IMG/VR virus record: IMGVR_UViG_2541047165_000034
Length of the DNA stretch: 9,620 bases
Strand: one strand, 5' to 3'
DNA from: a virus
Taxonomy: Duplodnaviria > Heunggongvirae > Uroviricota > Caudoviricetes
Part shown: piece by piece, positions 6,872 to 7,051 of the stretch
How positions within the stretch are numbered: the first letter of the stretch is position 1
How the letters are laid out: every line of letters begins with the position of its first letter
Program-made: the position numbers and the translations under genes
Notes under the pieces: generated by a model
Databases searched by the model: none
What the model was told of the DNA's origin: nothing
What the model saw: the letters and a program-made list of their open reading frames with translations, nothing else

Positions 6872-7051
6872 ATGGAAAGAGACCATATCAATAACAAATC
6901 ACAGAAATTACAGGCTCGCGCCCCGCATGAAGTTGTTGAGGCTATGGAGCAAGTAAAAGAAACAGGCGAGAGCACTGCGCAATTTATCGTTACAGCCATG
7001 CGAGGCGAGATCAAACGCCGCCAGCGCCGCAAGGCCAAAGAAGCGGAATAG
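6872..7051 (+). CDS. ribbon-helix-helix-like small DNA-binding protein (59 aa); candidate island regulator
   Basis: Not in the ORF track. ATG at 6872 with AAGGGA 8 nt upstream and TAG at 7049-7051. Translation: MERDHINNKSQKLQARAPHEVVEAMEQVKETGESTAQFIVTAMRGEIKRRQRRKAKEAE. It shows the strand-helix-helix pattern of CopG/Arc-type proteins. An intrinsic terminator lies downstream. Confidence 0.6.
   Translation: MERDHINNKSQKLQARAPHEVVEAMEQVKETGESTAQFIVTAMRGEIKRRQRRKAKEAE

Follow-up and report, generated by a model that had tools for sequence, protein, structure and literature searches.

The 9,620-nucleotide stretch of DNA analysed here (IMG/VR record IMGVR_UViG_2541047165_000034; hereafter the window) is a P4/PICI-type phage satellite of Escherichia coli of about 10 kb (PICI, phage-inducible chromosomal island). 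Its only plus-strand gene, ylcI, encodes a protein of 59 amino acids (aa) that belongs to the YlcI/YnfO family. Three copies of a palindrome precede the gene, and the central bases of the palindrome vary among related loci together with residues 12 and 14 of the protein. We consider it likely that the 59-aa protein, probably of the ribbon-helix-helix (RHH) type, binds the palindromes as operators, represses the early and replication operon of the satellite and regulates its own synthesis, and that its cassette is nested in a reading frame resembling eta/kil of P4.

The 59-codon gene is conserved as a protein-coding gene

The ATG-initiated open reading frame (ORF) at 6872-7051 was described in a first-pass annotation as an unannotated RHH gene, separately transcribed and convergent with an Xis/AlpA-like gene. 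All of the sequence features listed there are present, including the 59 codons and a plausible ribosome-binding site (RBS), AGGGA, 7 nt upstream of the ATG. The view of a real, separately transcribed gene was borne out, but the label 'unannotated', the dismissal of an overlapping antisense frame as spurious and the idea of interference at alpA were not. The three putative operators, the candidate divergent promoters and the nested frame resembling eta/kil had gone unnoticed there. RefSeq/PGAP has a coding sequence (CDS) at exactly 6872-7051, WP_000439003.1, named 'YlcI/YnfO family protein', and nearly all E. coli homologues among the matches listed bear this product name. In the RefSeq annotation of the matching island the gene is the sole plus-strand CDS, as had been noted, and the gene with which it converges belongs to the HTH_17/excisionase family (HTH, helix-turn-helix).

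The protein matches the NCBIfam model NF041551 with 72.3 bits (cutoff 30), with residues 9-50 aligned to model positions 1-42, and phrog_949 with E = 4e-27. It has no match to Pfam DUF3950 (PF13132) at E <= 1; YlcI of E. coli K-12 and an ORF of the record 'Escherichia phage vB_KppS-Ant' match that family at 1.9e-20. A protein search returned 108 homologues across Enterobacterales. The family is small, counting 89 cluster representatives among 1.84 billion at E <= 1e-3. At the DNA level, the gene together with its upstream region has homologues in at least 549 of 5426 complete E. coli genomes. No functional study came up in literature searches on YlcI, YnfO, DUF3950, the accession numbers and RHH proteins in PICIs.

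Scanning one genome per species gave 60 loci, 59 of which are complete. The conservation of the ORF and its frame in relatives, a check proposed in the first-pass annotation, is evident: the ORF is intact in 59/59 complete loci from other Enterobacterales species, each with a GGAG-type RBS. Its length is 57-63 codons, with the exception of one ORF of 110 codons. This 110-aa version, from Yersinia pekkanenii (locus L056, 532-864), apparently carries a second copy of helix B and the basic tail behind an inserted segment. GGAG at -11..-8 and the start context CAGTAATG are conserved in a consensus built from 48 non-redundant loci. The median pairwise ratio of nonsynonymous to synonymous substitution rates (dN/dS) is 0.22 over a 46-codon ungapped core. 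Mismatches have a mean BLOSUM62 score of +0.09 when translated in the sense frame (identity 0.61) and of -0.98 in the antisense frame (identity 0.56), conservative in the first case and radical in the second, which argues that the small gene is selected as a protein. We conclude that the 59-codon ORF is a genuine gene kept by purifying selection.

Three operator-like palindromes lie between candidate divergent promoters

The motif TGGAWTCCA occurs exactly three times in the window, at 6773, 6796 and 6841, all within a 77-bp stretch upstream of ylcI (6773-6849). The 13-bp palindromes containing it are the putative operators O1, O2 and O3 (Table 1). The three-site layout recurs in 52/58 loci, with sites at -31, -76 and -99 to -113, and is also present in the distant vB_KppS-Ant element. 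The elements follow one another in a recurring order: site, TATA; site, TCAAG/GTCAA; T-rich stretch; TATACT; site; GGAG; ATG. The outer GTG...CAC arms of the sites are kept, and the five to six central bases vary by locus, all three sites changing together. The centres of sites 3 and 2 correlate with r = 0.72 in a Mantel test (39-47 non-redundant loci were used in the Mantel tests).

The sites overlie two candidate promoters. On the plus strand, TCAAG/GTCAA after site 2 and TATA after site 1 are conserved across loci, TCAAG/GTCAA being the reverse complement of TTGA(A/C); these elements would belong to the leftward promoter. The putative -10 element of the rightward promoter of ylcI is TATACT. 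In the 48 non-redundant loci, GTATACTG is at least 75% conserved at -39..-32, and no element of the region is better conserved than the hexamer. A promoter scan proposed an alternative rightward promoter, TAAACA-16-TATAAT, at 6761-6788 (plus strand). The predicted 5' leader of the leftward transcript folds with -34 kcal/mol (z = -3.3), and 0/200 shuffled sequences are as stable. It includes an inverted repeat abutting O1, and a comparable one, CCTTGA-N5-TCAAGG, adjoins site 1 in other loci. The leader matches no Rfam family.

Iterons of a replication origin were considered as another identity of the three sites and ruled out, because the TGTTCACC iterons of the satellite are located elsewhere, at 3804-4024. 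Half-operators CTGGATT are found upstream of alpA at 7494 and 7514, 20 bp apart, together with CTGGTTT at 7474. An additional repressor target upstream of alpA was rejected, as CTGGATT is not kept in two other satellites encoding the identical protein; its occurrence may be due to chance.

The operator centre follows residues 12 and 14 of the small protein

The protein positions that best match the variation in the operator centre are residues 12 and 14 (r = 0.72 for site 3 and 0.64 for site 2). For residues 11-17 the correlation is 0.65-0.66, and 0.54 in a partial test controlling for the rest of the protein, while the alternate residues 11/13/15/17 give 0.43 and the helices 0.34-0.44. Residues 12 and 14 correlate with the DNA between the operators and the codons (5' untranslated region and spacer) at only r = 0.17-0.18; linkage alone therefore fails to explain the signal. 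The loci can be arranged into specificity classes, each pairing a residue string with a site: QKLQAR with TGGATTCCA, QKMSAR with TGGCACCCA, QMTTVR with TGA(A/C)ATACA, QQLNAR and KQVNVR with TGAAT(C/A)GCA, LQVSVR with TGAACACCA, QALKAR and QSLKSR with TGTGGCCCA, and KKLEAR with TGTCAGCCA.

The identical gene and operators are combined with three different alpA/HTH and int modules, and the sites thus do not follow AlpA. The Icd-like protein, encoded by the first gene of the leftward operon, was ruled out as the binder of the sites because its sequence shows no relation to the operator centre (r = 0.06; partial -0.01). Icd-like proteins match PHROG families 6196 and 1743, labelled 'transcriptional repressor', a label that may stem from the old annotation of P4 cI. 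The P4 RefSeq record (NC_001609.1, locus L065) carries a 137-aa CDS at 8168-8584 annotated as 'cI gene product / transcriptional repressor'.

One of the satellites with the identical protein and operators, in E. coli O157:H7 (locus L062, NZ_CP038339.1, 1-9700), is inserted in a prophage gene for the terminase large subunit. This is a helper-embedded PICI arrangement, in which a BRO-N gene replaces the alpA-proximal region.

The protein very probably has a ribbon-helix-helix fold

The first-pass annotation proposed a search against RHH profiles, and this search gave no significant Pfam match; the best, PSK_trans_fac (E = 0.03), did not reach the cutoff. A sequence search of the PDB with a profile of close homologues found nothing meaningful, and Foldseek returned no PDB matches for the short model. 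The AlphaFold model has a pLDDT of 85.7 and contains helices at residues 19-28 and 35-58.

Despite the absence of a direct profile match, the hhalign register, the profiles of distant relatives and the operator covariation point to RHH, and we regard this fold as very probable. In the hhalign alignment to Arc (16% probability), K12, Q14 and R16 are placed on Arc Q9, N11 and R13, which are the base-contacting strand residues in the established Arc-operator structures. Distant family members show the pattern '..v.VRvP.el...l......GesrseFvR.Ai..e..rR', and some distant relatives match RHH_1 (E = 4.5e-4), HicB-like and TacA1 profiles. The top PDB matches of a wider profile are 3no7 (E = 0.0097), which we take to be the RHH centromere-binding protein of pCXC100, and the CopG/Arc/MetJ-family chimera 6x0a. 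RHH antitoxins, for example ParD, TacA, MazE4 and VapB, make up many of the nearest matches by structure. The covariation of the operator centre with residues 12 and 14 is consistent with DNA recognition by alternate residues of an N-terminal strand.

The gene and its operators are antisense to a conserved open frame

The small gene is located, as stated in the first-pass annotation, inside a 252-aa minus-strand ORF (6472-7230). This ORF had been regarded as spurious; however, it ends in 67 codons that constitute the annotated Icd-like gene, and its openness is conserved over the frame as a whole. No stop interrupts the frame up to 7287, and 7230 is the ATG that gives the longest product. The stop codon of alpA, TAA at 7192-7190, is followed by GGGGGGAGTG and an ATG at 7179, so that 10 nt separate stop and start. 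A second E. coli satellite (L063) shares this junction, and in the O157:H7 satellite the long frame overlaps the end of the BRO-N gene.

The third codon positions of the long minus-strand frame coincide with those of the small gene. The long frame is open across the whole small gene in 59/60 loci, compared with 24 expected from synonymous resampling. It is open across the 196-nt operator region in 47/60 loci, against 0 and 1/60 for the other minus-strand frames, and for 150 nt beyond the stop of the small gene in 37/60, against 1 and 1/60. In 38/60 loci it continues uninterrupted into the C-terminus of the Icd-like protein, and 26 of these 38 have an ATG with an RBS beyond the small gene's stop. 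Given the radical substitutions in the antisense frame, the long frame appears to be selected only to stay open over the stretch of the small gene. The Icd-like gene is divergent from ylcI in 56/59 loci.

A tblastn search of phage records with the long ORF found a single match. In the vB_KppS-Ant record (locus L064, LR881103.1, 2970-3944), the long ORF is annotated as a single CDS of 324 aa, and the annotation omits the 67-aa YlcI-like gene inside it (3374-3577, opposite strand). This 16.5-kb 'phage' record has int, AlpA, primase and capsid genes, like a capsid-forming satellite.

The gene has its own intrinsic terminator, as the first-pass annotation held, formed by a terminator-like hairpin followed by TTTGTTTT. 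A hairpin with a T tract is found at most 170 nt past the stop in 38/60 loci, and homology with other E. coli satellites breaks off at about 7170. Read from the minus strand, the hairpin lacks a U tract and is no terminator; there it encodes codons 4-13 of the long ORF. The first-pass annotation suggested transcriptional interference aimed at alpA, which is unlikely as stated because the strong plus-strand terminator stands between the two genes. Interference in the opposite direction, by read-through from alpA crossing the gene antisense, is more plausible.

The ylcI cassette occupies the slot of the P4 immunity RNAs

ORF 8812..8168 of P4 (214 aa) is eta with kil nested in it, and ORF88, whose end it overlaps, is vis, a homologue of alpA. 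Residues 161-208 of the 214-aa product form an Icd-like domain (NF033153, the Icd-like/Kil domain model, 73 bits), and the same model recognises the window ORF with 66-70 bits. A direct BLASTP comparison of the 252-aa ORF with the P4 'cI' ORF was not significant, and the link is made through NF033153. In both elements a long ORF extends from the end of the alpA/vis homologue to the Icd-like domain and encloses a promoter, PLE in P4 and a predicted one in the window. The long ORF starts at the end of the alpA homologue in the window and overlaps it in P4, as it does the gene in that position in the O157:H7 satellite. This region is flanked in both by the integration module and the primase, and the two elements share the origin iteron TGTTCACC.

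According to PMC10111431, which cites Forti et al. 1999 as the origin of the eta/kil mechanism, a constitutive promoter is situated inside eta, and its transcript is terminated via the CI and seqA RNA sites. PMC10111431 further states that P4 immunity is mediated by CI RNA and that Kil is a truncated product functioning in cell killing. Full-length Eta is described there as translated only from the upstream late promoter, coupled to the alpA homologue, and it is this translation that prevents termination. Rfam models locate C4 (CI) at 8420-8507 and isrK (seqA-like) at 8615-8692 in P4 eta. Neither RNA was detected in the window (Rfam, E <= 1; only eukaryotic-type false positives) or in ten other ylcI loci (Rfam gathering threshold). 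Whereas P4 has these RNAs on the same strand as eta, the window has a protein gene on the opposite strand, three operators and a separate terminator. The ylcI gene, its operators and its terminator occupy the slot of the P4 CI/seqA immunity RNAs.

In a further E. coli satellite (L066, NZ_CP117020.1, 2797-3718), an opposite-strand gene for a 64-aa 'HicB family antitoxin' fills the slot that separates the Icd-like domain from the HTH/int module. It overlaps a 137-aa Icd-like CDS by 71 nt and is followed by a SWIM zinc-finger gene. This layout suggests that alternative cassettes are exchanged at this slot.

Proposed mechanism and alternative explanations

From the sequence we infer that the protein binds DNA, in which direction it regulates, where the promoters lie and that read-through or interference takes place. 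A probable RHH dimer would bind the three palindromes between the back-to-back promoters. In the integrated state, the small protein on O1 and O2 would shut the leftward promoter of the Icd-like (kil-like) and replication genes, and occupancy of O3 would limit the gene's own promoter. O2 abuts the place of the missing rightward -35 element, and positive autoregulation may also occur. The small protein would thereby act as a protein immunity repressor in the slot that holds the CI/seqA RNAs in P4. Upon induction, transcription from the alpA side would pass the hairpin, which lacks a U tract in this direction, the antisense gene and the operators. Like the P4 transcript, this one would be protected by ribosomes that translate the long frame, so that the replication genes would be expressed regardless of the repressor, the expression of which would be impaired by collision and antisense effects.

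More tentatively, we speculate that a protein cassette replaced the P4-type CI/seqA RNA immunity and was embedded antisense in a translated eta/kil-type gene, so that induction both bypasses and silences the repressor. About 170 codons without conservation at the protein level would be kept free of stops solely for ribosome escort, and the repressor would be the one so far missing from a subset of Gram-negative PICI-type satellites, acting globally and existing in many immunity classes. We rate this extended scenario as possible, though somewhat less likely to be right than wrong.

Several points weigh against the proposal of an operator-binding satellite repressor. The N-terminal strand is absent from the AlphaFold monomer model, and the rightward promoter has no recognisable -35 element. 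The loci are related, so Mantel p-values overstate their independence. The long frame is continuous in only 38/60 loci, and the read-through part cannot be general. Furthermore, ylcI of K-12, in prophage DLP12, is located by cos/nohD without such operators, so the family is not always used in this way.

The resemblance to RHH antitoxins, the proximity of the Icd-like gene in 56/59 loci and the cell-killing function ascribed to P4 Kil in PMC10111431 could mean that the small protein is an antidote, in the manner of a type II antitoxin, to a toxic Icd-like protein, and that the operators serve autoregulation only. We find this improbable. Type II antitoxins are co-transcribed and co-evolve with their toxins, whereas here the genes are divergent, covariation between the small protein and the Icd-like protein is weak (r = 0.18), the operator centre is unrelated to the Icd-like sequence, and beyond the basic tail the small protein has no C-terminal toxin-binding extension. 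Equally improbable, in our view, is a regulator aimed at the helper phage, with local sites that are merely autoregulatory. YlcI/YnfO relatives near lambdoid cos/terminase regions would fit such a role: K-12 ylcI adjoins nohD in DLP12, and the O157:H7 satellite with the identical protein is embedded in a prophage terminase gene. However, two of the three sites overlie the leftward promoter and not the gene's own, and satellites that are otherwise alike differ widely in specificity class, as is typical of self-immunity. Helper phages yielded no matching sites, although none were looked for there.

The remaining two explanations are very unlikely. The convergent layout with alpA is real and could allow the gene to act chiefly in cis, by transcription towards alpA, with the protein being secondary. 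The strong terminator preceding alpA opposes this, as do the selection on the protein sequence and the finding that the unchanged cassette also faces other downstream genes, BRO-N and a different HTH gene. Alternatively, the plus-strand ORF could be a by-product of a functional eta-like long ORF, and the sites could be bound by AlpA or by a helper-phage or host protein. The conserved open antisense frame, the strong RBS right after alpA and the public record that annotates the long ORF but not the small one would suit this explanation. It conflicts with the substitution pattern, conservative in sense and radical in antisense, with the conservation of the plus-strand ATG, RBS and, in 38/60 loci, terminator, and with the confident folding of the 59-aa model. 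The family moreover occurs outside this context (K-12 ylcI), and the operator centre follows residues 12 and 14 of the small protein while the sites do not follow the alpA module.

Organisation of the satellite

The 801-base query covering window positions 6600-7400 is 100% identical to sequences of O111:H8 and related genomes. In a RefSeq genome the matching island is flanked by a tRNA-Ile gene and nfeF. The gene order of the window (Table 1) is the four-zone layout of Gram-negative PICI-type satellites; these zones are integration, dynamic zone, replication and late (PMC10111431). As in Gram-negative PICIs, the element has int, alpA, a primase/replication module and late gene(s), site-specific integration, and a size in the range of about 10-15 kb. 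In NZ_AP026114.1, which was compared with the window over 6600-7400 and is identical there, the counterpart of the capsid-fusion CDS (L001, 1942-3830) is annotated as frameshifted. Nine exact copies of TGTTCACC on both strands are clustered between the primase gene and the next ORF, whereas 0.34 copies are expected by chance in the whole window. The octamer is identical to the annotated 'ori type 1 repeats' of P4, and the cluster is probably the replication origin of the satellite.

Table 1 Features of the satellite in the window, in order of decreasing position.
Feature	Position	Strand	Remarks
Tyrosine integrase gene	8193-9620	-	
228-aa hypothetical gene		-	between integrase and alpA in listed order
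AlpA/excisionase-type HTH gene (alpA)	7190-7387	-	HTH_17 E = 1e-12; TIGR01764
Intrinsic terminator of ylcI transcript	7142..7170	+	hairpin 7142-7162, 7-bp GC-rich stem, then TTTGTTTT
ylcI	6872-7051	+	59 aa
Shine-Dalgarno-like AGGGA	6860..6864	+	read from sequence; relatives have GGAG there
O3 (putative operator) ACTGGATTCCAGT	6839..6851		directly after the gene's own -10; equivalent at -31 in nearly all loci
TATACT, putative -10 of rightward (ylcI) promoter	6836..6841	+	
O2 (putative operator) AGTGGAATCCACT	6794..6806		in leftward promoter spacer; equivalent at -76 in nearly all loci
Leftward promoter-like TTGAAG-18-TATACT	6781..6810	-	toward Icd-like/primase operon; assigned by consensus
O1 (putative operator) ACTGGATTCCAGT	6771..6783		perfect palindrome; overlaps -10/start region of leftward promoter; equivalent at -99..-113 in 52/58 loci
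5' leader of leftward transcript, two hairpins	6676..6780	-	includes TTGAGTG-N5-CACTCAA, 6756-6774, abutting O1
eta-like long ORF, 235 aa	6472..7179	-	ATG after alpA stop, with GGGGGGAG RBS; contains ylcI and operators antisense
Icd-like (P4 kil-like) gene	6472-6675	-	first of leftward operon; NF033153 69.6 bits; RefSeq CDS
106-aa hypothetical gene, then DUF4222 gene		-	after Icd-like gene
P4-type primase gene	4039-5871	-	
TGTTCACC cluster, probable origin	3804-4024	both	
81-aa hypothetical gene, SSB gene, 75-aa hypothetical gene		-	after primase
ClpP-protease/major-capsid fusion gene	540-2429	-	intact, 629 aa

Relation to known repressors and significance

Arc and Mnt of the immI region of phage P22 are RHH proteins encoded at the divergent promoters Pant and Pmnt. 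Our comparison with them draws on established knowledge and on hhalign only. The window protein shares with them a size of about 50-80 aa, a putative strand-helix-helix pattern, palindromes over back-to-back promoters and a place at the early operon of a mobile element; with Arc it shares the alignment of K12, Q14 and R16 with DNA-contacting residues. It differs in lacking a significant sequence or profile match and in having three single sites instead of one operator of two half-sites. In addition, its gene is antisense inside another frame, and its host is a satellite, not a phage. K-12 YlcI (DLP12) and YnfO (Qin) belong to the same NCBIfam family, NF041551, and have the same size and the N-terminal pattern NxKS....R.P. 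The pairwise similarity to K-12 YlcI is however not significant, the window protein misses the DUF3950 match of its K-12 relative, and K-12 ylcI is found in a cos/nohD neighbourhood without the three-site architecture.

The switching on of Gram-negative PICIs is attributed to AlpA. Their global repressor has been called 'unclear' (PMC6092414). In the Gram-positive PICIs (SaPIs), the repressors Stl and Rpr are encoded divergently from the satellite excision/replication operon (PMC6092414), as is the proposed repressor of the window. Stl and Rpr are however unrelated to it in protein type and size, and the window gene points toward int and alpA instead of sharing their direction. In addition, nothing in the window points to derepression by a helper-phage protein. 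A small RHH-type repressor with operators at divergent promoters is a known kind of regulator. Its use as an immunity module of P4/PICI-type satellites, the many specificity classes and the antisense embedding in an eta/kil-type frame appear to be new.

The two frames overlapping on opposite strands are both evolutionarily supported, one for its protein and the other apparently only for its openness. To our knowledge, clean bacterial cases of such overlapping frames are rare, and current annotation pipelines miss them. The analysis offers a probable function for the YlcI/YnfO (DUF3950) family; it also maps putative operators, predicts the specificity residues and distinguishes at least a dozen specificity classes in nature. 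The ylcI product is thus a concrete candidate for a master repressor of enterobacterial satellites, and O157 and O111 pathogens carry this exact gene.

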